This document shows positions 9,568 to 20,009 of a stretch of DNA of 20,009 nt, in pieces. Source of the stretch: a virus (taxonomy: Duplodnaviria; Heunggongvirae; Uroviricota; Caudoviricetes); the IMG/VR virus record IMGVR_UViG_2617270955_000003, one strand, 5' to 3'. Position 1 is the first letter of the stretch, and every line of letters starts with the position of its first letter. The notes under the pieces were generated by a model. The model saw only the letters and a list, made by a program, of their open reading frames with translations, was not told the DNA's origin and searched no databases. Both the position numbers and the translations under genes were made by a program.

Positions 9568-12500
9568 ATGGGCAAAGGAAGCAGTAAGGGGCATACCCCG
9601 CGCGAAGCGAAGGACAACCTGAAATCCACGCAATTACTGAGTGTGATCGATGCCATCAGCGAAGGGCCGATTGAAGGTCCGGTGGATGGATTAAAAAGCG
9701 TGCTGCTGAACAGTACACCGGTGCTGGACAGTGAGGGGAATACCAACATCTCCGGTGTTACGGTGGTGTTCCGGGCAGGTGAGCAGGAGCAGACACCGCC
9801 GGAGGGATTTGAATCCTCCGGTTCCGAGACGGTGCTGGGTACGGAAGTGAAATACGACACGCCGATCACCCGCACCATCACGTCGGCAAACATCGACCGT
9901 CTGCGCTTTACCTTCGGTGTGCAGGCACTGGTGGAAACCACCTCAAAGGGGGACAGGAATCCATCGGAAGTCCGCCTGCTGGTTCAGATACAACGTAACG
10001 GTGGCTGGGTGACGGAAAAAGACATCACCATTAAGGGTAAAACCACCTCACAGTATCTGGCCTCAGTGGTGGTGGATAACCTGCCGCCGCGCCCGTTTAA
10101 TATCCGGATGCGCAGGATGACGCCGGACAGCACCACAGACCAGCTGCAGAACAAAACGCTCTGGTCGTCATACACCGAAATCATCGATGTGAAACAGTGC
10201 TACCCGAACACGGCACTGGTCGGCGTACAGGTGGACTCGGAGCAGTTCGGCAGCCAGCAGGTGAGTCGTAATTATCATCTTCGCGGGCGCATTCTGCAGG
10301 TGCCGTCGAACTATAACCCGCAGACGCGGCAATACAGCGGTATCTGGGACGGAACGTTTAAGCCGGCATACAGCAACAACATGGCCTGGTGTCTGTGGGA
10401 TATGCTGACCCATCCGCGCTACGGCATGGGAAAACGTCTTGGTGCGGCAGATGTGGATAAATGGGCGCTGTATGTCATCGGCCAGTACTGCGACCAGTCG
10501 GTGCCGGACGGCTTTGGCGGCACGGAGCCGCGCATCACCTGTAATGCGTACCTGACCACACAGCGTAAGGCGTGGGATGTGCTCAGTGATTTCTGCTCGG
10601 CGATGCGCTGTATGCCGGTATGGAACGGGCAGACGCTGACGTTCGTGCAGGACCGGCCGTCGGATAATGTGTGGACCTATAACCGCAGTAATGTGGTGAT
10701 GCCGGATGATGGCGCGCCGTTCCGCTACAGTTTCAGCGCCCTGAAGGACCGCCATAATGCCGTTGAGGTGAACTGGACTGACCCGGATAACGGCTGGGAA
10801 ACGGCAACAGAGCTTGTGGAGGACACGCAGGCCATTGCCCGTTATGGTCGTAATGTCACGAAGATGGATGCCTTTGGCTGTACCAGCCGGGGGCAGGCAC
10901 ACCGCGCCGGGCTGTGGCTGATTAAAACGGAGCTGCTGGAAACGCAGACCGTGGACTTCAGCGTGGGCGCAGAAGGGCTTCGCCATGTACCGGGCGATGT
11001 TATTGAAATCTGCGATGATGACTATGCCGGTATCAGCACCGGTGGTCGTGTGCTGGCGGTGAGCAGCCAGACCCGGACGCTGACGCTCGACCGTGAAATC
11101 ACGCTGCCATCCTCCGGCACCACGCTGATAAGCCTGGTTGACGGAAGTGGCAATCCGGTCAGCGTGCAGGTCCAGTCCGTCACCGACGGCGTGAAGGTGA
11201 AAGTGAGCCGGGTTCCTGACGGCGTTGCAGAATACAGCGTGTGGGGGCTGAAGTTGCCGACGTTGCGCCAGCGCCTGTTCCGCTGTGTGAGTATCCGTGA
11301 GAACGACGACGGCACGTATGCCATCACCGCCGTGCAGCATGTACCGGAAAAAGAAGCCATCGTGGATAACGGGGCGCACTTTGACGGCGACCAGAGCGGC
11401 ACGGTGAATGGTGTCACGCCGCCAGCGGTGCAGCACCTGGCCGCAGAAGTCACTGCAGACAGCGGGGAATATCAGGTGCTGGCGCGATGGGACACACCGA
11501 AGGTGGTGAAGGGCGTGAGCTTCCTGCTCCGTCTGACCGTAACAGCGGACGACGGCAGTGAGCGGCTGGTCAGCACGGCCCGGACGACGGAAACCACATA
11601 CCGCTTCAGGCAACTGGCGCTGGGGCGTTACACGCTGACGGTCCGGGCGGTAAATGCGTGGGGGCAGCAGGGCGATCCGGCATCGGTATCGTTCCGGATT
11701 GCGGCACCGGCAGCGCCTGTCACTATTGAACTGATACCAGGGTATTTTCAGATAACAGCGGTCCCGAAACTGGCTGTATATGACCCGACGGTGCAGTTTG
11801 AGTTCTGGTTCTCGGAAAAGCGGATTATCGATATCAGGCAGGTTGAAACCAGCGCGCGTTATCTTGGTACGGCGCTGTACTGGATAGCCGCCAGTAGCAA
11901 TATTAAGCCGGGTTATGATTATTACTTTTATATCCGCAGCGTGAACACCGTTGGTAAATCGGCATTTGTGGAGGCCGTTGGTCGGGCGAGCGATGATGCG
12001 GAAGGTTATCTGAATTTTTATAAAGGGTTGATCAATAAAACGCATCTCGGCAAGGAACTGCTGGAAAACTTTGAGCTGACGGAAGATAACGCCAGCAAAC
12101 TGGAGGAGTTTTCGAAAGAGTGGAAGGACGCCAACGATAAATGGAATGCCATGTGGGGCGTCAAAATTGAGCAGACCAAAGACGGCAAACATTATGTCGC
12201 GGGGCTTGGCCTCAGCATGGAGGATACGGAGGAAGGCAAACTGAGCCAGTTCCTGGTTGCCGCTAACCGTATCGCGTTTATTGACCCGGCAAACGGGAAT
12301 GAAACGCCGATGTTTGTGGCGCAGGGCAACCAGATATTCATGAACGACGTGTTCCTGAAGCGCCTGACGGCCCCCACCATTACCAGCGGCGGTAATCCTC
12401 CGGCATTTTCCCTGACACCGGACGGGCGGCTGACGGCGAAAAATGCCGATATCAGCGGTAACGTGAATGCGAACTCCGGGACGCTCAACAACGTCACGAT

Positions 12501-12963
12501 TAACGAGAACTGCCGGGTTCTGGGAAAACTGTCCGCGAACCAGATTGAAGGCGATCTCGTTAAAACAGTGGGCAAAGCTTTCCCCCGTGACTCCCGGGCA
12601 CCGGAGCGGTGGCCATCAGGGACCATTACCGTCAGGGTTTATGACGATCAGCCGTTTGACCGGCAAATTGTTATTCCGGCTGTGGCATTCAGTGGCGCTA
12701 AGCATGAGAGAGAGCATACTGATATTTACTCCTCATGCCGTCTGATAGTGCGGAAAAACGGTGCTGAAATTTATAACCGTACCGCGCTGGATAATACGCT
12801 GATTTACAGTGGCGTTATTGATATGCCTGCCGGTCACGGTCACATGACGCTGGAGTTTTCGGTGTCAGCATGGCTGGTAAATGGCTGGTATCCCACAGCA
12901 AGTATCAGCGATTTGCTGGTTGTTGTGATGAAGAAAGCCACTGCAGGCATCACGATTAGCTGA
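9568..12963 (+). CDS. J: Central tail fibre / host specificity protein J, with divergent C-terminal receptor-binding region
   Basis: 1131 aa; GGAG RBS 8 nt upstream; N-terminal ~1000 aa match lambda gpJ as recalled, with fibronectin-III-like repeats; last ~145 aa are homologous to but clearly different from lambda. Confidence 0.95.
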
Positions 12964-12982: not shown

Positions 12983-13007
12983 GGCACCAGAAATGGTGCC
13001 TTTTTTA
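12983..13007 (+). terminator. Intrinsic terminator after J
   Basis: GGCACC-AGAAAT-GGTGCC hairpin followed by TTTTTTATT. Confidence 0.6.
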
Positions 13008-13030
13008 TTGCAGAAAAGCGAGAGGTAATT

Positions 13031-13630
13031 ATGCGTAAATTATGTGCTGTTATTCTATCCGCAGTAGTCTGGCTGGTTGCCGCTGGTACGCCAGCGAGCG
13101 CAGCAGAGCATCAGTCCACACTAAGCGCCGGGTATCTTCAGACCCATACTGATATGCCAGGCAGTGATGACCTGAAGGGCATTAACGTGAAATACCGTTA
13201 TGAATTTACGGACACGCTGGGGCTGGTGACGTCATTCAGTTATGCCAATGCCAAAGATGAGCAAAAAACGCATTACAGCGATACCCGCTGGCATGAAGAT
13301 TCAGTGCGTAACCGCTGGTTCAGCATGATGGCGGGGCCATCTGTACGCGTGAATGAATGGTTCAGTGCTTATGCGATGGCAGGTGTGGCTTACAGCCGTG
13401 TTTCGACGTTCTCCGGGGATTATCTCCGCGTAACTGACAACAAGGGGAAAACGCACGATGTGCTGACCGGAAGTGATGACGATCGCCACAGCAACACGTC
13501 TCTGGCGTGGGGAGCTGGCGTGCAGTTTAACCCGACCGAATCCGTGGCCATTGATATTGCTTATGAAGGCTCCGGCAGTGGCGACTGGCGCACTGACGGT
13601 TTCATCGTGGGTGTCGGTTATAAGTTCTGA
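13031..13630 (+). CDS. lom: Lom outer membrane protein (Ail/OmpX/PagC family)
   Basis: 199 aa; signal peptide MRKLCAVILSAVVWLVAAGTPASA; beta-barrel OMP signature with C-terminal ...GFIVGVGYKF; GAGAGG RBS; same position as lambda lom. Confidence 0.95.
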   Translation: MRKLCAVILSAVVWLVAAGTPASAAEHQSTLSAGYLQTHTDMPGSDDLKGINVKYRYEFTDTLGLVTSFSYANAKDEQKTHYSDTRWHEDSVRNRWFSMMAGPSVRVNEWFSAYAMAGVAYSRVSTFSGDYLRVTDNKGKTHDVLTGSDDDRHSNTSLAWGAGVQFNPTESVAIDIAYEGSGSGDWRTDGFIVGVGYKF

Positions 13631-13657
13631 TTAGCCAGGTAACACAGTGTTATGACA

Positions 13658-13683
13658 GCCCGCCGGTTCAGGCGGGCTTTTTT
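13658..13683 (+). terminator. Intrinsic terminator after lom
   Basis: GCCCGCC-GGTTCA-GGCGGGC hairpin followed by TTTTTT; a corresponding hairpin follows lom in lambda as I recall it. Confidence 0.65.
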
Positions 13684-13686
13684 GTG

Positions 13687-14397
13687 CACAGAAAACCCCC
13701 AGCTAGGCTGGGGGTTCCGGAAAGCTTTCAGCTTTAAGCCAGTTATTAAAACCCCTTTTGATTTGTTAAAACACCTTGCGGTCTGGCAACTGCAAGTGTC
13801 AAACAAGAAATCAAAAGGGGGTCCCAATGGGGAACGAAAAGAGCTTAGCGCACACCCGATGGAACTGTAAATATCACATAGTTTTTGCGCCAAAATACCG
13901 AAGACAGGTGTTCTACAGAGAGAAGCGTAGAGCAATAGGCAGTATTTTGAGAAAGCTGTGTGAGTGGAAAAGTGTACGGATTCTGGAAGCTGAATGCTGT
14001 GCAGATCATATCCATATGCTTGTGGAGATCCCGCCCAAAATGAGCGTATCCGGCTTTATGGGATATCTGAAAGGGAAAAGCAGTCTGATGCTTTACGAGC
14101 AGTTTGGTGATTTGAAATTCAAATACAGGAACAGGGAGTTCTGGTGCAGAGGGTACTACGTCGATACGGTGGGTAAGAACACGGCGAAGATACAGGATTA
14201 CATAAAGCACCAGCTTGAAGAGGATAAAATGGGAGAGCAGTTATCGATTCCCTATCCGGGCAGCCCGTTTACGGGCCGTAAGTAACGAAGTTGGATGCAA
14301 ATGTCAGATCGTGTGCGCCTGTTAGGGCGCGGCTGGTAAGAGAGCCTTATAGGCGCATTTGAAAAACCTCCGGCTATGCCGGAGGATATTTATTGTG
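13687..14397 (+). mobile_element. IS200-family insertion sequence (IS200/IS605 family), about 0.7 kb, boundaries approximate
   Basis: Contains an IS200-type TnpA gene; left end carries an 8-bp-stem hairpin (CCCCCAGC-TAG-GCTGGGGG, 13696..13714); element sits where lambda has only about 10 bp between the lom terminator and the stf start; length fits IS200 (about 707 bp). Confidence 0.7.
13827..14285 (+). CDS. tnpA: IS200-family transposase TnpA (HUH single-strand transposase)
   Basis: 152 aa from ATG 13827 (MGNEKSLAHTRWNCKYHIVFAPKYRR...); HUH motif in ...CADHIHMLVEIPP...; the track start at 13776 is an upstream in-frame extension. Confidence 0.9.
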   Translation: MGNEKSLAHTRWNCKYHIVFAPKYRRQVFYREKRRAIGSILRKLCEWKSVRILEAECCADHIHMLVEIPPKMSVSGFMGYLKGKSSLMLYEQFGDLKFKYRNREFWCRGYYVDTVGKNTAKIQDYIKHQLEEDKMGEQLSIPYPGSPFTGRK

Positions 14398-14405
14398 GAG
14401 TGGAT

Positions 14406-16784
14406 ATGGCAGCAGTAAAAATCTCAGGTGTGCTGAAAGATGGTGCGGGAAAACCAATACAGAACTGCACTATTCAACTGAAGGCAAAGCGTAACAGCAC
14501 CACGGTACTGGTGAACACGGTGGCTTCTGAAAATCCGGATGAAGCCGGACGTTACAGCATGGATGTTGAGCATGGTCAGTACAGCGTCACCCTGCTGGTT
14601 GAAGGTTTTCCGCCTTCACATGCCGGGACCATTACCGTCTATGAAGGTTCCAGACCAGGTACGCTGAATGATTTTCTCGGTGCCATGACGGAGGATGATG
14701 TCCGACCGGAGGCACTGCGCCGCTTTGAGCAGATGGTGGAAGAAGCGGCACGCAACGCTGAAGCCGCCTCTCAGAGCGCAGCGGCGGCAAAGAAATCCGA
14801 AACTGCAGCGGCATCATCGAAGAACGCGGCGAAAACCTCAGAAACGAATGCAGCTAACAGCGCACAGGCGGCAGCGACCTCAAAGACTGCATCGGCAAAC
14901 TCCGCGACAGCAGCCAAAAAATCAGAAACCAACGCGAAAAATAGCGAGACAGCCGCAAAGACGAGCGAAACCAACGCAAAGTCCAGCCAGACGGCAGCGA
15001 AAACCAGCGAAACGAATGCCAAAGCCAGTGAAACTGCGGCAAAAAACAGCCAGGTTGCAGCAGCCCAAAGCGAGAGCGCGGCAGCCGGTTCTGCGACTTC
15101 AGCAGCTGGATCAGCAACTGCTGCGGCTAACAGCCGGAAAGCTGCGAAGACGAGTGAAACTAACGCAAAGTCCAGCCAGACGGCAGCGAAGACCAGCGAA
15201 ACGAATGCCAAAGCCAGCGAAACTGCGGCGAAAAACAGTCAGGATGCAGCAGCCCAAAGCGAGAGTGCTGCAGCTGGTTCTGCAAGCGCGGCGGCTGCTT
15301 CTGCCACTGCATCAGCCAACAGTCAAAAAGCAGCAAAAACCAGTGAAACCAATGCAAAGACAAGCGAGACTGCAGCGGCGAACTCGGCGAAAGCATCCGC
15401 TGCAAGCCAGACCGCTGCAAAAGCAAGTGAAGACGCAGCCAGAGAGTATGCAAGCCAGGCAGCAGATCCGTATAAATATGTCTTACAGCCGCTGCCTGAT
15501 GTGTGGATACCGTTTAACGATTCACTGGATATGATTACGGGCTTTTCGCCATCATATAAAAAGATTGTTATTGGTGACGACGAAATAACGATGCCTGGCG
15601 ACAAGATTGTTAAGTTTAAACGTGCATCGAAAGCAACCTATATTAACAAATCTGGTGTGCTGACAGAGGCTGCCATTGATGAGCCACGATTTGAACGTGA
15701 TGGCCTGCTTATTGAGGGGCAAAGAACTAATCTTCTGCTTAATTCAACAAATCCATCTAAATGGAATAAGTCAGGCAATCTGGAACTCACAGAAATATCC
15801 ACGGATTCTTTTAATTTTACTTATGGGAGATTTACTGTAAAAGATACTCTTATTGGTCAGACAAGTGCTATTAATATCGTAACGATTTCTGGCAGTAAAG
15901 GGTTTGATGTCACAGGTGATGAAAAATATGTGACCATTTCATGCCGTGTAAGAAGTGATGTTGAAAATATAAGGTGTCGTTTAAGATTTGAACACCATGA
16001 TGGTTATACTTACACTTTTTTGGGAGATGCTTACCTCAATTTATCAACACTTGTAATTGATAAAACTGGTACTGCTGCAGACCGTATTATTGCAAAGGCT
16101 GTAAAAGATGAGGTTACTGGTTGGATTTTCTATCAGGCTACAATTAATGCACTAGATACAGAGAGCATGATTGGTGCGATGGTTCAATACGCTCCTGTAA
16201 AAGGTTCAGGTACAGCATCTGGAGACTATCTGGATATCGCAACTCCACAAGTGGAAGGTGGATCAAGTGCTTCGTCATTTATTGTAACTGATATAACTGC
16301 AAGCACTCGCGCAAGCGATATGGTGACAGTCCCAATCAAGAATAACCTTTATAATCTTCCTTTTACGGTTCTTTGTGAGGTACATAAGAACTGGTATAAA
16401 ACGCCAAATGCAGCACCGCGTGTTTTTGATACCGGCGGTCATCAAACCGGAGCGGCTATTATTCTTGGCTTCGGTCGTTCAACAGATTACGACGGATTTC
16501 CTTATTGTGATATAGGTTTGGCTAACAGACGGGTAAACGAAAACGCATCGCTTGAAAAAATGGTTATGGGGATGCGTGTAAAGTCAGATCAGTCTACGTG
16601 CTCAGTAAGTAACGGGCGTATATCCAGCGAAAAGAAAGCCACATGGTCCTATATTCAGAACTCCGCAATTATCCGTATTGGAGGCCAGACTACAGCCGGG
16701 TTGCGTCATTTATTTGGTCATGTCAGGAATTTCAGAATATGGCACAAGGCATTGACTGATGCTCAGATGGGGGAGTCAATCTAA
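14406..16784 (+). CDS. stf: Side tail fibre protein (lambda Stf-like N-terminus, repetitive Ala/Ser/Thr shaft, divergent AT-rich C-terminal domain)
   Basis: ATG 14406 gives MAAVKISGVLKDGAGKPIQNCTIQLKAKRNSTT..., matching the lambda Stf N-terminus as recalled; the track start at 14376 falls in the IS200 end region. Confidence 0.9.
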   Translation: MAAVKISGVLKDGAGKPIQNCTIQLKAKRNSTTVLVNTVASENPDEAGRYSMDVEHGQYSVTLLVEGFPPSHAGTITVYEGSRPGTLNDFLGAMTEDDVRPEALRRFEQMVEEAARNAEAASQSAAAAKKSETAAASSKNAAKTSETNAANSAQAAATSKTASANSATAAKKSETNAKNSETAAKTSETNAKSSQTAAKTSETNAKASETAAKNSQVAAAQSESAAAGSATSAAGSATAAANSRKAAKTSETNAKSSQTAAKTSETNAKASETAAKNSQDAAAQSESAAAGSASAAAASATASANSQKAAKTSETNAKTSETAAANSAKASAASQTAAKASEDAAREYASQAADPYKYVLQPLPDVWIPFNDSLDMITGFSPSYKKIVIGDDEITMPGDKIVKFKRASKATYINKSGVLTEAAIDEPRFERDGLLIEGQRTNLLLNSTNPSKWNKSGNLELTEISTDSFNFTYGRFTVKDTLIGQTSAINIVTISGSKGFDVTGDEKYVTISCRVRSDVENIRCRLRFEHHDGYTYTFLGDAYLNLSTLVIDKTGTAADRIIAKAVKDEVTGWIFYQATINALDTESMIGAMVQYAPVKGSGTASGDYLDIATPQVEGGSSASSFIVTDITASTRASDMVTVPIKNNLYNLPFTVLCEVHKNWYKTPNAAPRVFDTGGHQTGAAIILGFGRSTDYDGFPYCDIGLANRRVNENASLEKMVMGMRVKSDQSTCSVSNGRISSEKKATWSYIQNSAIIRIGGQTTAGLRHLFGHVRNFRIWHKALTDAQMGESI
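14953..15283 (+). repeat. Tandem in-frame duplication of about 189 bp (63 codons) in the stf shaft
   Basis: Segments 14953..15094 and 15142..15283 are near-identical at offset 189 bp (...GTCCAGCCAGACGGCAGCGAA.ACCAGCGAAACGAATGCCAAAGCCAG.GAAACTGCGGC...), encoding repeated AAKTSETNAKSSQTAAKTSETNAKASETAAKNSQ. Confidence 0.85.
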
Positions 16785-17065
16785 TGAAAGATTTAACACT
16801 CAAATTTGCAGACAGGGCCGACTTTTCGGCCTTTATGGATAGCATTGGCTATTATGATGACGAGTCGATGCAGGATGATATTCTTATTGACGTGATAGGT
16901 AACGTGTACAAAGAAACCGGAGAACTGACTGAAGATGGCGAACCGGTATGTGTTAAGGAAGATGGATATTATGTAAACGTGCGCATCATTAATGATGCAA
17001 AAAAATCGTCAATATTCGATGAATACGCGGTTGTAGTTGAACATCAACTTCGTGGCTGGATGTGA
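16784..17065 (+). CDS. Hypothetical small acidic protein (93 aa), translationally coupled to stf
   Basis: ATG overlaps the stf stop (TAATG); AT-rich like the stf 3' half; occupies the position where lambda has tfa but does not resemble Tfa. Confidence 0.55.
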   Translation: MKDLTLKFADRADFSAFMDSIGYYDDESMQDDILIDVIGNVYKETGELTEDGEPVCVKEDGYYVNVRIINDAKKSSIFDEYAVVVEHQLRGWM

Positions 17066-17074
17066 GGGAGACAA

Positions 17075-17779
17075 ATGGCTACATCGACAGTAATTCCAGG
17101 AGACATCACCACGTTAAAGGGAGATGTCAGTAAAGCCAAGGAAGATATTTCCTCAATTAACGGAAAAGTATCAACGCTTCAGGCTGATATGACCAGTGCA
17201 AAGCAGGATATCAGCACCAGATACACAAAAACTGAAGTTGATAATAAGCTGAAAAACAAACTGGAAGTGAACGCTCTGGAAAGCGGTCGTTATGGTGGAG
17301 ATTTTTACCCGTTGACTGGCCGTGAAGCGTTTTATTTGTGGGGATTGGGCACGACTACAGCGGCGGCAAACCTTTATCTTAATCCTGACCCCGCAATTTC
17401 GTCTGTGCTGCGGTCAACATCGTCTATCCGCTATAAACATTCAGTAGAGACAATAGATTCAGAGCACGCCGATCTCATTTTCAGGATGCGCCCTGTGTGG
17501 TACAGGTCACAATGCGAAAATGACAGGCGTGACTGGGGATTCTACGGATTGATTGCCGAGGAAGTAGGAGAAATTGCCCCTCAGTTTGTACACTGGCGAC
17601 CAGCTAACGAAGATGATGCACCGGAAGCTATTTCCAGCAATGGCCTTGTTGCCGAAGGTGTAATGTACGAACGTCTGGTTGTTCCACTGATTCACCATAT
17701 CCAGAAGCTGACTGAAAGAGTTGATGAACTTGAGTCAGAATTAAAGTTGTTATCCGTTTCCCGAAGCGATATCGGATAA
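17075..17779 (+). CDS. Tail-fibre-like protein with C-terminal intramolecular-chaperone (peptidase S74-like) domain
   Basis: 234 aa; GGGAG RBS; N-terminal periodic coiled-coil-like segment; C-terminal ...SSIRYKHSVETIDSEHADLIFRMRPVWY...WGFYGLIAEEVGEIAPQFV...NGLVAEGVMYERLVVPLIHHIQKLTERVDELESELK resembles the autoproteolytic chaperone domains of phage fibres and tailspikes. Confidence 0.65.
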   Translation: MATSTVIPGDITTLKGDVSKAKEDISSINGKVSTLQADMTSAKQDISTRYTKTEVDNKLKNKLEVNALESGRYGGDFYPLTGREAFYLWGLGTTTAAANLYLNPDPAISSVLRSTSSIRYKHSVETIDSEHADLIFRMRPVWYRSQCENDRRDWGFYGLIAEEVGEIAPQFVHWRPANEDDAPEAISSNGLVAEGVMYERLVVPLIHHIQKLTERVDELESELKLLSVSRSDIG

Positions 17780-17789
17780 AGGAGGAGTA

Positions 17790-18077
17790 ATGGATATAAG
17801 CCCCTTACTTCATGCACTTTGTGCTGTGGCTGCGCAAACACTGGTTGGTCTTTTTACCGGAAACTGGGCTTACGGAGCGATAGCCGGTTGTACGTTCTTC
17901 ATTGCGCGTGAACACACCCAGGCAGAATATCGCTGGATCGAAATGTTCGGGCATGGCAAGCGAATGAATATGCCGTGGTGGGGCGGTTTTGATCCGCGCG
18001 CGTGGGATGTGACAAGCCTGATGGATTTTGCTGTGCCGGTGGTGGCGTGTCTGCTGATCTGGATGTTGATCCGTTAA
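17790..18077 (+). CDS. Hypothetical small membrane protein (95 aa, 2-3 predicted TM segments)
   Basis: Strong RBS AAGGAGGAG 7 nt upstream; hydrophobic N-terminal and C-terminal segments; last gene before attP. Confidence 0.6.
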   Translation: MDISPLLHALCAVAAQTLVGLFTGNWAYGAIAGCTFFIAREHTQAEYRWIEMFGHGKRMNMPWWGGFDPRAWDVTSLMDFAVPVVACLLIWMLIR

Positions 18078-18084
18078 ATATAAA

Positions 18085-18120
18085 AGCCGCAGTAACTTGC
18101 CATGATAGGATACTGCGGCT
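18085..18120 (+). repeat. Inverted repeat / hairpin downstream of the membrane-protein ORF
   Basis: AGCCGCAGTA ... TACTGCGGCT (10-bp arms, 16-nt loop); no following T-tract, so terminator function is uncertain. Confidence 0.3.
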
Positions 18121-18317
18121 GGCTGGTTAACTTTCGATAGTGCGAGTATTGAATGATTTCCAGCCGTTACTGATTTTATATAACGGCAGTGGAATTATTC
18201 AACACACAGGCAAAACACAGGCAAAACGGAATAAGCTGAGAAAAAAAGCGTGCTTTCCCAATCTGGGGCAAATCACGTCTGAATGACACCTGAAAACAGG
18301 TGGTGGACTCAAGAAGG

Positions 18318-18395
18318 CTTGGAATATTCTTCTTTAATGTTATGTAATTCATTGATTTTTCGTGTACGATTTTAAGACATTTATTCCAAGAAGAA
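18318..18395 (+). promoter_or_regulatory. Candidate integrase arm-type binding sites (P arm): one direct and one inverted CTTGGAATA motif
   Basis: CTTGGAATATTCTTC at 18318..18332 and its inverted relative TTATTCCAAGAAGAA at 18381..18395, upstream of the tRNA-like core. Confidence 0.5.
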
Positions 18396-18429
18396 TTTTT
18401 AACTCTTTGATTTTTCTACTCTGTATCAT

Positions 18430-18491
18430 CGGTCTCGAAAACCGGAGTGGGGGCAACTCCACCGGGGGTTCAAATCCCCCTCTCTCCGCCA
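18430..18491 (+). tRNA. Partial tRNA-Ser(CGA) (serU-like) 3' segment, anticodon stem to CCA; probable att core
   Basis: Anticodon loop CTCGAAA (anticodon CGA), long variable arm, T-arm GGGGG-TTCAAAT-CCCCC, acceptor 3' strand TCTCTCC, discriminator G and CCA at 18489..18491; no matching 5' acceptor/D-arm upstream, so not a complete gene. Confidence 0.75.
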
Positions 18492-18536
18492 AAATTCAAT
18501 CACTTACACATCATTAAGTCAGTGACAAAAATCACA

Positions 18537-18572
18537 CTTGGAATTACTTGGAATATTTTCTTGGAATATTTT
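18537..18572 (+). promoter_or_regulatory. Candidate integrase arm-type binding sites (P' arm): three direct CTTGGAAT(T/A) repeats
   Basis: CTTGGAATTA (18537..18546), CTTGGAATATTTT (18547..18559), CTTGGAATATTTT (18560..18572); they overlap the last about 10 codons of int. Confidence 0.55.
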
Positions 18573-19569
18573 CAGGTAACGGGACATCAAGTGTTGGTGA
18601 AACTTTAACCTTCCTGTCATAGATTAGCACTTGCCCTTCGGTTTTGTGACCAGAGAAAAGTTGCTTATCCCGGCTGCTTCCTTCATAGTCTGAAATTCCT
18701 TTCGCCTTCAGATCATGAAAGGTGAAGTCGGTTAAAATACCTGAAATTTTTCCAGCACGATTTCTTGCATCTACCCACATTTCGTTAAAGCCTTTGTACA
18801 TATATCGGTTGCCGTATTGATTGCTGATCACATAGGCAGATTTTGGTAACTGTTTTGCTTTTTCGATCGCTGCCTGTAATCGTGGACTCCATGCTTTTAT
18901 CTGTTTTTTTCCGGTTTTCCCTTGCTGGATGAATATCCCGTCGTTTCCAATCTGTTCCCATTTCAGCGATAACACATCGGAAACCCTCGCTGCACACAGA
19001 TAGGCAATTTCCATTGCGATAAAAACAGGAAGAGGTGCAACGCTTAATACTGCCTGGTATTCTTTGTCGGTTACATATCGTTCGCGGTTTTTGGCCTTGA
19101 ATTTACTTACACCTGCACATGGGTTAGCCTTCACGTACCCTCGCTCATACCCCCAACTGTAAACACGGGACATACTGCTTTTTTCATGGTTGGCTTGCGT
19201 TTTACTCTGCTCCCCTCTTTTGTCCATGTATCGACGGATGTGTTCTGGTTTTATGGAATCCGCTGGTACCTTACCGAATACGGCAAGCAACTTTTTTTGA
19301 TGTTGCAGATAATCTTTTTGTGTTCTTGGACTAAGGTCACTGTAATAGGCGCTGGCGAGGAATTTTTCCCACAAGCGACCGAATGTCATTGCACGATCGC
19401 GATTATTTACAGTTTCCTCATACTTTTTCCATAAAGCAGCTAAACCATCCTTGATGGCGGTTAGTGTGACAGATTCTCTGGATGTTGGTTTCCATACATA
19501 ACTATATTTATTTGGGTATACATTTGGAGGTAATTTTTCGTGTTCAGGATTTTTCCTTCGTCTTCCCAT
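18544..19569 (-). CDS. int: Tyrosine integrase (lambda Int family)
   Basis: 341 aa; lambda-like arm-binding N-terminus MGRRRKNPEHEKLPPNVY; catalytic-region signatures ...HDLKAKG... and ...GHKTEGQVLIYDRK (candidate Tyr); adjacent to attP; start overlaps the xis-like stop (TGATG). Confidence 0.95.
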   Translation of the reverse strand: MGRRRKNPEHEKLPPNVYPNKYSYVWKPTSRESVTLTAIKDGLAALWKKYEETVNNRDRAMTFGRLWEKFLASAYYSDLSPRTQKDYLQHQKKLLAVFGKVPADSIKPEHIRRYMDKRGEQSKTQANHEKSSMSRVYSWGYERGYVKANPCAGVSKFKAKNRERYVTDKEYQAVLSVAPLPVFIAMEIAYLCAARVSDVLSLKWEQIGNDGIFIQQGKTGKKQIKAWSPRLQAAIEKAKQLPKSAYVISNQYGNRYMYKGFNEMWVDARNRAGKISGILTDFTFHDLKAKGISDYEGSSRDKQLFSGHKTEGQVLIYDRKVKVSPTLDVPLPENIPRKYSK

Positions 19570-19772
19570 CAGATCGCACCAAAATTCGGCTCTACCTCGC
19601 GTGGTGGTAAAGTTTTATTGCAGGTAAATAGATCCCGGCTGACAATCGGTTTGCCACTACGATTGGTATAGAACGGAAGCCCGTTTTCTATTAACCATTT
19701 TCGCTGGTGGCTTGCATATTTGCAGCCCGTTAATATTAGCAATTCATCTTCGGTTAAAAATAAGCTGCTCAT
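19569..19772 (-). CDS. Excisionase-like protein (DUF4224-like small DNA-binding protein)
   Basis: 67 aa, MSSLFLTEDELLILTGCKY...WLIENGLPF...; immediately upstream of and coupled to int, the usual xis position. Confidence 0.7.
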   Translation of the reverse strand: MSSLFLTEDELLILTGCKYASHQRKWLIENGLPFYTNRSGKPIVSRDLFTCNKTLPPREVEPNFGAI

Positions 19773-19789
19773 AGCTATATCTCATAACC

Positions 19790-19815
19790 GCCGCTAACTA
19801 TATACGGTTAGCGGC
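19790..19815 (+). repeat. Perfect 9-bp inverted repeat (GCCGCTAAC-N8-GTTAGCGGC) between the exonuclease stop and the xis-like start
   Basis: Read directly from the sequence; no T-tract on either strand. Confidence 0.5.
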
Positions 19816-19830
19816 AATTAGGGTTGAACA

Positions 19831-20009
19831 TTAAAAATCAGCCTGACTCGGGATCAGTTTTTGCCAGATAGCTGAAACGTATTTTGCCTGGTAACGAGCG
19901 TCATCAAGTGCATTATGGCGCTCACCTTCGAATGGAATAGCCGTTCTGGCATCGAAGTCTATGGCTTTCCCCAGCTCAACGATTGTGCGTACATCGCGAT
20001 CGTTGTAGT
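19831..20009 (-). CDS. DnaQ-like (DEDDh) 3'-5' exonuclease, C-terminal part; 5' end beyond the window
   Basis: Minus-strand frame open from the window edge to the stop at 19831..19833; translation ...DFDARTAIPFEGERHNALDDARYQAKYVSAIWQKL... contains an Exo III-like H-x-A-L-x-D-A motif. Confidence 0.55.
   Translation of the reverse strand, partial: YNDRDVRTIVELGKAIDFDARTAIPFEGERHNALDDARYQAKYVSAIWQKLIPSQADF

Follow-up and report, generated by a model that had tools for sequence, protein, structure and literature searches.

The 20,009-nucleotide (nt) stretch of tailed-phage DNA analysed here (IMG/VR virus record IMGVR_UViG_2617270955_000003; hereafter "the window") carries tail, fibre and integration genes of a lambdoid prophage, and its G+C content (GC) falls abruptly inside stf, the gene for the side tail fibre. 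We conclude that this step probably marks a recombination joint, with an exchangeable host-range cassette beginning at codon 371 of stf and comprising the fibre tip and the two open reading frames (ORFs) that follow it, ORF93 and ORF234. This is fibre-tip mosaicism of the ordinary, well-known kind, not a cargo gene set; tail-fibre mosaicism among lambda, P2, Mu, P1 and T4 is classical. The features that bear on this conclusion are the following, where GC3 stands for GC at third codon positions and aa for amino acids:

14406–15485, plus strand: N-terminal part of Stf, with tail attachment and an Ala/Ser/Thr-rich heptad shaft; GC 0.544; lambdoid-specific.
15486–15560, plus strand: junction box, encoding QPLPDVWIPFNDSLDMITGFSPSYK; the first stretch conserved across all phage families.
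15486–16784, plus strand: Stf tip (residues 371–802), 432 aa, exchangeable and low in GC (GC 0.412, GC3 0.326); predicted receptor-binding domain.
16784–17065, plus strand: ORF93, small and acidic; its gene invariably comes next after a tip of this type.
17075–17779, plus strand: ORF234, a short second fibre protein with a conserved 15-aa N-terminus, a coiled coil and a C-terminal Peptidase_S74 (S74) domain.
17790–18077, plus strand: ORF95, a small hydrophobic protein; an islet of GC 0.528.

Across the whole window, the strongest single change point in GC is 15471, with a GC of 0.537 to its left and 0.430 to its right and a log-likelihood ratio of 80.2. No shuffled sequence reached this ratio (maximum 40.7; 300 shuffles at each of the block sizes 1, 50, 200 and 500 nt), and with 600-nt flanks the largest local drop in GC, 0.19, falls at 15466. 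The change is seen at synonymous sites: GC3 is 0.673 in the upstream tail gene J, 0.486 in Stf residues 1–370 and 0.326 in Stf residues 371–802. An earlier note on this DNA had described a low-GC block running from about 15480 to 18100. Its left edge is borne out both by the significant step in GC, which exceeds all shuffles, and by the fall in GC3 from J to the Stf tip. Its right edge is not, since low GC goes on through attP, int and xis, and the GC of 15480–18100 (0.437) is indistinguishable from that of 18101–20009 (0.424). Within the window, a two-boundary test for a compositional genomic island therefore failed, with a strong left edge and no right edge, because the attP–int–xis region is natively AT-rich. 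Instead of a bounded island, the window has a single downward step, beyond which the right-hand part, up to the window end, is low in GC. The block is not homogeneous either: GC passes through a trough of 0.345–0.38 at 15700–16200, and ORF95 inside the block has a GC3 of 0.552.

The GC change point lies 15 nt from a breakpoint in homology at 15486, the codon for Q371 of Stf. When 13000–20009 was used as a BLAST query, homology to the Salmonella Tequintavirus vB_Si_CECAV_FGS017 (91% identity; hereafter FGS017) and to the Nonagvirus ESCO3 (81%) began exactly at this position. A multiple alignment gives the same picture, with a near-invariant box from codon Q371 onward, QPLPDVWIPFNDSLDMITGF, and nothing alignable between lambdoids and T5-like or 9g-like phages upstream of alignment column 87 (equivalent to 15486). 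We regard the junction box at 15486–15560 as the probable recombination joint. Downstream of it, the tip is 91% identical to that of FGS017 at the nucleotide level overall and 97% identical over 15600–16250, including an exact run of 237 nt at 15648–15884; its identity to the tips of its own lambdoid relatives is 60–80%. The earlier note had proposed a horizontally acquired cassette, consisting of the fibre tip and three cargo ORFs, on a lambda-type backbone; homology to virulent phages from 15486 onward supports the first part of this proposal, for the tip.

Upstream of the joint, stf is that of a lambdoid phage. The Pfam family PF08400 (phage_tail_N, the prophage tail fibre N-terminal domain) matches Stf residues 13–142 (E 2.6e-67; 225 bits against a cut-off of 26.6), 14389–14761 is 83–86% identical at the nucleotide level in lambda and Stx phages, and stf closes the tail operon, behind J and lom, as expected of a lambda-type side tail fibre. 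The shaft at 14906–15377 contains nested repeats of 21, 42 and 189 nt, with heptads of the KTSETNA type, and an extreme AT skew of up to 0.71. Two copies of the 189-nt repeat are 83% identical, and could mediate variation in fibre length.

The coincidence of composition and homology recurs in other phages that carry this tip. In every lambdoid carrier, the GC of the tip is 0.13–0.15 below that of the upstream tail genes, and in four other lambdoids the maximum GC drop falls 15–71 nt from the QPLPDVW codons of the box. In the T5-like FGS017, the tip has a GC of 0.405 and the flanks 0.39–0.41. These comparisons bear on an alternative in which nothing specific was acquired and the step is the start of the natively AT-rich segment to the right of the tail genes (b region, att and int) of lambdoids. 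Segmental composition in lambda, with a GC-rich left arm and an AT-rich b region, has been textbook knowledge since the 1960s. The layout here is the same, with a GC-rich head and tail arm followed by an AT-rich stretch to att and int: lambda has a GC of 0.571 in J, 0.314 in ea47 and 0.45 in int, and in the window low GC is unbroken through the same phage's attP, int and xis. In lambda, however, which has a different tip, stf and tfa have a GC of 0.49–0.58 and the drop comes only after tfa, at 22649. Here, the AT-richness of the tip cassette itself moves the boundary to the left, into stf, and it falls at the very codon where virulent-phage homology starts; moreover, its offset from QPLPDVW recurs in the four other carriers. 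We therefore consider it unlikely that the native segment accounts for the step.

Less probable still is that low GC reflects protein composition, or diversifying selection on a fast-evolving receptor-binding domain, instead of foreign origin. The GC trough does coincide with a hypervariable tip core at about 15786–16236, and in the T1-like phage PeterMerian the tip (GC 0.413) lies slightly under its flanks (0.445). Yet third codon positions, rather than first and second positions, show the strongest drop, and near-identity to a T5-like genome of 40% GC, whose flanks match the tip in composition, is a simpler account.

The exchangeable cassette extends beyond the tip. ORF93 and ORF234 travel with it in virulent phages, which identifies them as parts of a fibre module and not as cargo. 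The full module of three genes is present in the virulent T1-like phage PeterMerian (Bas05), whose fibre, 92-aa and 231-aa proteins show amino acid identities of 62, 47 and 57%, respectively. FGS017, ESCO3 and the temperate phage HannyBb encode a fibre, a protein of about 92 aa, and then an S74 protein of 581, 351 and 343 aa, respectively. Whole or as sub-modules, the cassette is found in the lateral-tail-fibre loci of virulent T5-, T1- and 9g-like siphoviruses and in many lambdoid prophages, and the tip domain occurs in more than 2,500 proteins, fused to PF08400, to PF12571/PF03406 (P2/Mu-type), and to T1- and T5-type N-termini.

The right-hand end of shared sequence differs from phage to phage. 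With the T5-like phage the joint is at 16807; with HannyBb and ESCO3 it is at 17118–17134, where the conserved N-terminal peptide of the second fibre protein is encoded; with T1-like phages it is at about 17711, and with temperate phages at 18068–18182. The cassette is thus a mosaic of sub-modules joined at the QPLPDVW box, at the boundary between stf and ORF93, and at the 15-aa N-terminus of the second fibre protein. When the block was searched as a unit, it was found in 177 of 5,426 complete Escherichia coli genomes (parts of it in 1,896), and among 50,697 phage records in one only, IdasGreatGrand.

A third alternative is very unlikely, namely that all three ORFs that follow stf serve lysogenic conversion, as cargo genes (morons) hitch-hiking with the tip. 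In its favour, none of the three is informatively annotated, their place at the end of the prophage is one where morons accumulate, and ORF95 is hydrophobic, temperate-only among phage matches and represented by a chromosomal homologue in Aeromonas. Against it, strictly virulent phages encode homologues of ORF93 and ORF234 at equivalent positions, ORF234 has an S74 domain and a coiled coil of fibre type and a positional equivalent in virions of the T5-like phage SIA3lw (PMC12752171), and ORF95 differs from the other two in GC and distribution. For ORF93 and ORF234, synteny with virulent phages already refutes this alternative, and the three cargo ORFs of the earlier note come down to one candidate, ORF95.

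ORF95 belongs to phrog_1443 (E 9.5e-57). It has no family annotation in Pfam or NCBIfam, where a Pfam search at E up to 10 gave only a chance-level match to PhoR. Temperate phages with other tips (PhiR49_2 and HannyBb) carry it at 91–95% nucleotide identity, and it is absent from the virulent fibre loci examined. One homologue is a lone chromosomal gene in a non-phage context in Aeromonas rivipollensis, between genes for pirin and a RIO1 kinase; another stands directly after a J-like gene in a Comamonas prophage (6001–6309 and 6001–6303 of the respective fetched loci). ORF95 is a separate module that moves independently, and the only plausible cargo gene or moron in the block.

The tip is matched by the NCBIfam model NF048003 (GTA_spike_fiber) over Stf residues 445–646, at 58.5 bits against a cut-off of 36, and homologues of the tip are named "phage head spike fiber domain-containing protein" by PGAP. 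A phmmer search against the PDB matched it to the head spike fibre of the gene transfer agent (GTA) RcGTA (6tb9; E 2.8e-4), a protein that binds capsular polysaccharide (PMC10218006). Foldseek searches with an AlphaFold2 model of the tip returned the tail fibres of Pa193 and E217 and carbohydrate-binding modules; the TM-score normalised to the query was 0.28, and these results are weak because the model was built from an alignment of 26 sequences, all at least 68% identical to the query. A Pfam search with the E limit set at 10 matched the C-terminal 50 residues of Stf marginally to Laminin_G_3 (E 0.052), and Pfam identified no S74 domain on Stf.

ORF93 is a member of phrog_1361 (E 1e-46), without a match in Pfam (E up to 10) or NCBIfam. 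Homologues occupy the same position in T5-like (42% aa identity), 9g-like (90%) and T1-like (47%) phages, and also in lambdoid phages. An exhaustive phmmer search places the family in only 50 clusters at 50% identity, all of them standalone proteins of about 90–100 aa, with no informative fusions.

In ORF234, PF13884 matches residues 116–172 at 27.3 bits, against a cut-off of 22. The alignment shows S116 and K121 to be invariant in the 234-, 343-, 351- and 581-aa versions of the protein; we take these to be the catalytic serine and the lysine five residues downstream of it, a dyad as in the endosialidase structure. All four lengths share the N-terminal sequence MATSTVIPxDIxTLK, and the body is variable. 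The S74 region matches the L-shaped fibre of DT57C (PDB 8hqz_d; E 5.5e-7), and the coiled coil resembles P22 gp26 (E 0.015) and the coils of the DT57C fibre. In the T5-like phage SIA3lw, a fibre (ORF42) and an S74 protein (ORF44) were both found in virions by mass spectrometry (PMC12752171); we equate ORF44 with the position of ORF234 by gene order and size, not by sequence.

Together, these features suggest how the fibre could be built. The PF08400 domain would fix Stf to the tail tip, the heptad shaft would form a trimeric coiled coil, and the central beta-sandwich of the tip, of the GTA head-spike-fibre type, would bind a surface glycan (O-antigen, capsule or lipopolysaccharide). The hypervariable core and the GC trough would both fall in this central part. 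ORF93 may assist folding of the tip or bridge it to the next protein. ORF234 would dock via its conserved N-terminal peptide and trimerise with the help of its S74 domain, which would then cleave itself off at Ser116 to leave a stub of about 115 aa; Stf with docked ORF234 would make a branched fibre. We infer attachment of the second fibre through the first solely from the conserved 15-aa N-terminus. The conserved boxes would let homologous recombination swap tips between otherwise unrelated genomes, and relaxed recombination by phage Rad52-like recombinases fits such an exchange (PMC3945230).

Several observations weigh against parts of this account. Composition alone gives no direction of transfer, and with a GC of 0.42 in int and xis too, the tip does not count as foreign on the right-hand side of this genome. 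The similarities that suggest glycan binding by the tip are weak (E 2.8e-4 in the PDB search; TM-score 0.28), and the AlphaFold2 model is confident only at tip residues 85–260, the beta-sandwich, and unreliable elsewhere, which we ascribe to the closeness of the 26 aligned sequences to the query. For ORF93, the AlphaFold2 model is unusable (mean predicted local distance difference test score 44), and PhiR49_2 keeps ORF93 without any S74 protein, which argues against a pure adaptor role; ORF93 is a candidate fibre assembly factor or adaptor that carries no functional annotation. In ORF234, the coiled coil is the whole body of the 234-aa version and leaves almost nothing between coil and cleavage site, and the authors of the BASEL collection labelled its T1-like homologue a putative chaperone; ORF234 may be a chaperone or cap instead of a receptor-binding fibre. 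Finally, stf is immediately preceded by an IS200 element, whose left end follows closely on a terminator-like hairpin; the element may block late transcription into the fibre module, which may be poorly expressed here.

The age and route of the exchange can be set against earlier work on phage mosaicism. In a 2014 survey, De Paepe et al. define a recent mosaic as a BLAST match of at least 100 bp at >90% identity (PMC3945230). Comparing 24 temperate with 26 virulent coliphages, they found no recent mosaics across lifestyles and ascribed old stf exchanges to invertases (PMC3945230). By that definition, the tip shared with FGS017 is a recent mosaic of a temperate and a virulent phage, and no invertase gene was found within the window. 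It is possible, though we hold this tentatively, that a temperate lambdoid and a virulent T5-like Salmonella phage recently exchanged the tip at the junction boxes without an invertase, and that the module specifies a three-part branched fibre common to four siphovirus lineages. The three parts would be the GTA-spike-type tip, the 93-aa protein as adaptor, and a mini-fibre with an S74 domain, docked through its N-terminal peptide. In the locus of HannyBb, a DNA invertase gene (7188–7778) lies just downstream of the homologous fibre module, an observation that bears on the role of invertases in exchange.

Among known systems, Stf/Tfa of Ur-lambda has the PF08400 N-terminus and the place after J and lom in common with this fibre, the first 370 nt being 83% identical, and, as here, lambda Stf and Tfa are host-range determinants swapped between unrelated phages. 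Lambda Stf has a lambda/T4 gp37-type tip followed by Tfa, whereas here a tip of the GTA-spike-fibre type is followed by the 93-aa and S74 proteins. No Tfa-family chaperone follows stf in the window: neither ORF93, ORF234 nor ORF95 has a Tfa-type match in Pfam, NCBIfam or PHROGs.

The closest system by architecture is the branched, L-shaped fibre LtfA/LtfB of the T5-like phages DT57C and DT571/2 (PMC4728585, PMC10713586), made of tandem-encoded fibre proteins with S74 domains present, as here. The second of these fibres is thought to hang on the first, and the pair recognises O-antigen. However, in DT57C an S74 domain is found on LtfA as well, a protein without homology to this Stf, whose tip matches NF048003 instead; ORF234 has no sequence similarity to the DT57C proteins outside S74, and branching in the present case is something we only infer. 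The available text of these papers describes no 93-aa gene at the DT57C locus.

By sequence, the closest system is the lateral fibre locus of the Drexlerviridae, represented by PeterMerian bas05_0031–0029 (BASEL; PMC8594841). It holds the same three-gene module and, as here, lineage-specific sequence is confined to the far 5′ end of the fibre gene. It differs in belonging to a virulent genome, in its place between the genes for primase and single-stranded DNA-binding protein, in its T1-type N-terminus, in the absence of ORF95, and in a nucleotide identity of about 62–70%. RcGTA Rcc01080 (6tb9; NF048003) has a domain family in common with the central beta-sandwich of the tip; it is the head spike of an alphaproteobacterial gene transfer agent, and the distant similarity covers only part of the tip.

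The tip of a tail fibre determines host range, and the same tip allele circulates between a prophage of pandemic E. coli sequence type 131 (ST131) and virulent T5-like phages used or proposed for Salmonella biocontrol. This matters for host-range prediction and bears on the assumption that therapeutic phages of the virulent kind trade no DNA with prophages. ORF93 and the docking peptide of the S74 protein form a widespread module whose parts are labelled "hypothetical protein" or given generic tail-fibre names; in RefSeq, ORF93 and ORF95 are hypothetical proteins, and ORF234 is named only after its tail-fibre domain. We found no experimental study of this module. The compositional anomaly is in itself ordinary, and the possible recent temperate–virulent exchange is the one mildly notable point.

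Matches to bacterial chromosomes identify the window as the serU (tRNA-Ser) prophage of E. coli ST131, in an excised-circular or tandem form. ST131 chromosomes (for example, EC958 and JJ1886) match 13000–18506 at 99.9%, their counterpart being the right end of the prophage, abutting zinT. The opposite end of the same EC958/JJ1886 prophage, beside tRNA-Ser and about 40 kb away, matches 18430–20009 at 100%. Since two opposite prophage ends are joined in the window, it derives from an excised circle, a phage record or a tandem lysogen, and not from a simple junction of prophage and chromosome; in the chromosome of strain noe1104, the right and left prophage ends are contiguous, as in the window. 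The remaining features are:

3948–7181: tape measure gene, followed by tail-tip genes.
9568–12963: J.
13031–13630: lom.
13687–14394: IS200, with a Y1 transposase at 13827–14285 and an Rfam match to STnc490 (146 bits) at 13694–13817.
14376–16784, plus strand: the stf ORF (802 aa), with its real start at 14406, followed by ORF93, ORF234 and ORF95.
18085–18200, no strand assigned: structured intergenic region with two strong hairpins; fold z −5.1 (plus strand) and −4.5 (minus strand).
18430–18506, plus strand: att core of 77 nt, comprising the 3′ 61 nt of tRNA-Ser(CGA) and a further 16 nt; joint of the right and left prophage ends.
18544–19569, minus strand: integrase (PF00589).
19569–19772, minus strand: DUF4224 excisionase (PF13986).

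The ST131 attR match ends at 18506 and the match on the attL/tRNA-Ser side starts at 18430, which delimits the att core. ARAGORN found no complete tRNA, only the 3′ 61 nt of tRNA-Ser being present. The stretch from integrase to excisionase (18544–19772) has a GC of 0.42–0.43. An integrase belonging to a second element beside a tRNA fragment was ruled out, since 18430–20009 is the other end of the same prophage at 100%; this match assigns integrase, excisionase and fibre genes to a single phage.

The IS200 element is inserted between the terminator hairpin of lom and the start of stf; it is present in ST131 genomes and not in the otherwise collinear noe1104. The stf start at 14406 is the RefSeq start in EC958, and the upstream ATG at 14376 falls within the end of IS200.

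In the structured intergenic region after ORF95, the first hairpin resembles a terminator on the minus strand, where a U-run comes after it. It looks like a terminator for leftward int transcription, or else a bidirectional end of the late operon. The same hairpin overlaps a 65-nt element, and 18111–18179 is 88–94% identical in phiP27, HK75, ECP1, mEp234 and Citrobacter phage Chris1; nothing is annotated at the counterparts in these five phages. An Rfam search of 18078–18543 returned nothing meaningful, the tmRNA and plastid matches reflecting the tRNA-like fragment.

Two observations concern J. A 674-aa ORF lies antisense to it (10168–12192, minus strand) and is most likely not a gene but a side effect of high GC3 in J. 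The second-largest GC drop of the window (0.147) falls at about 11718 inside J, some 400 codons before its end, at the start of the C-terminal receptor-binding part, and suggests that J is mosaic too.

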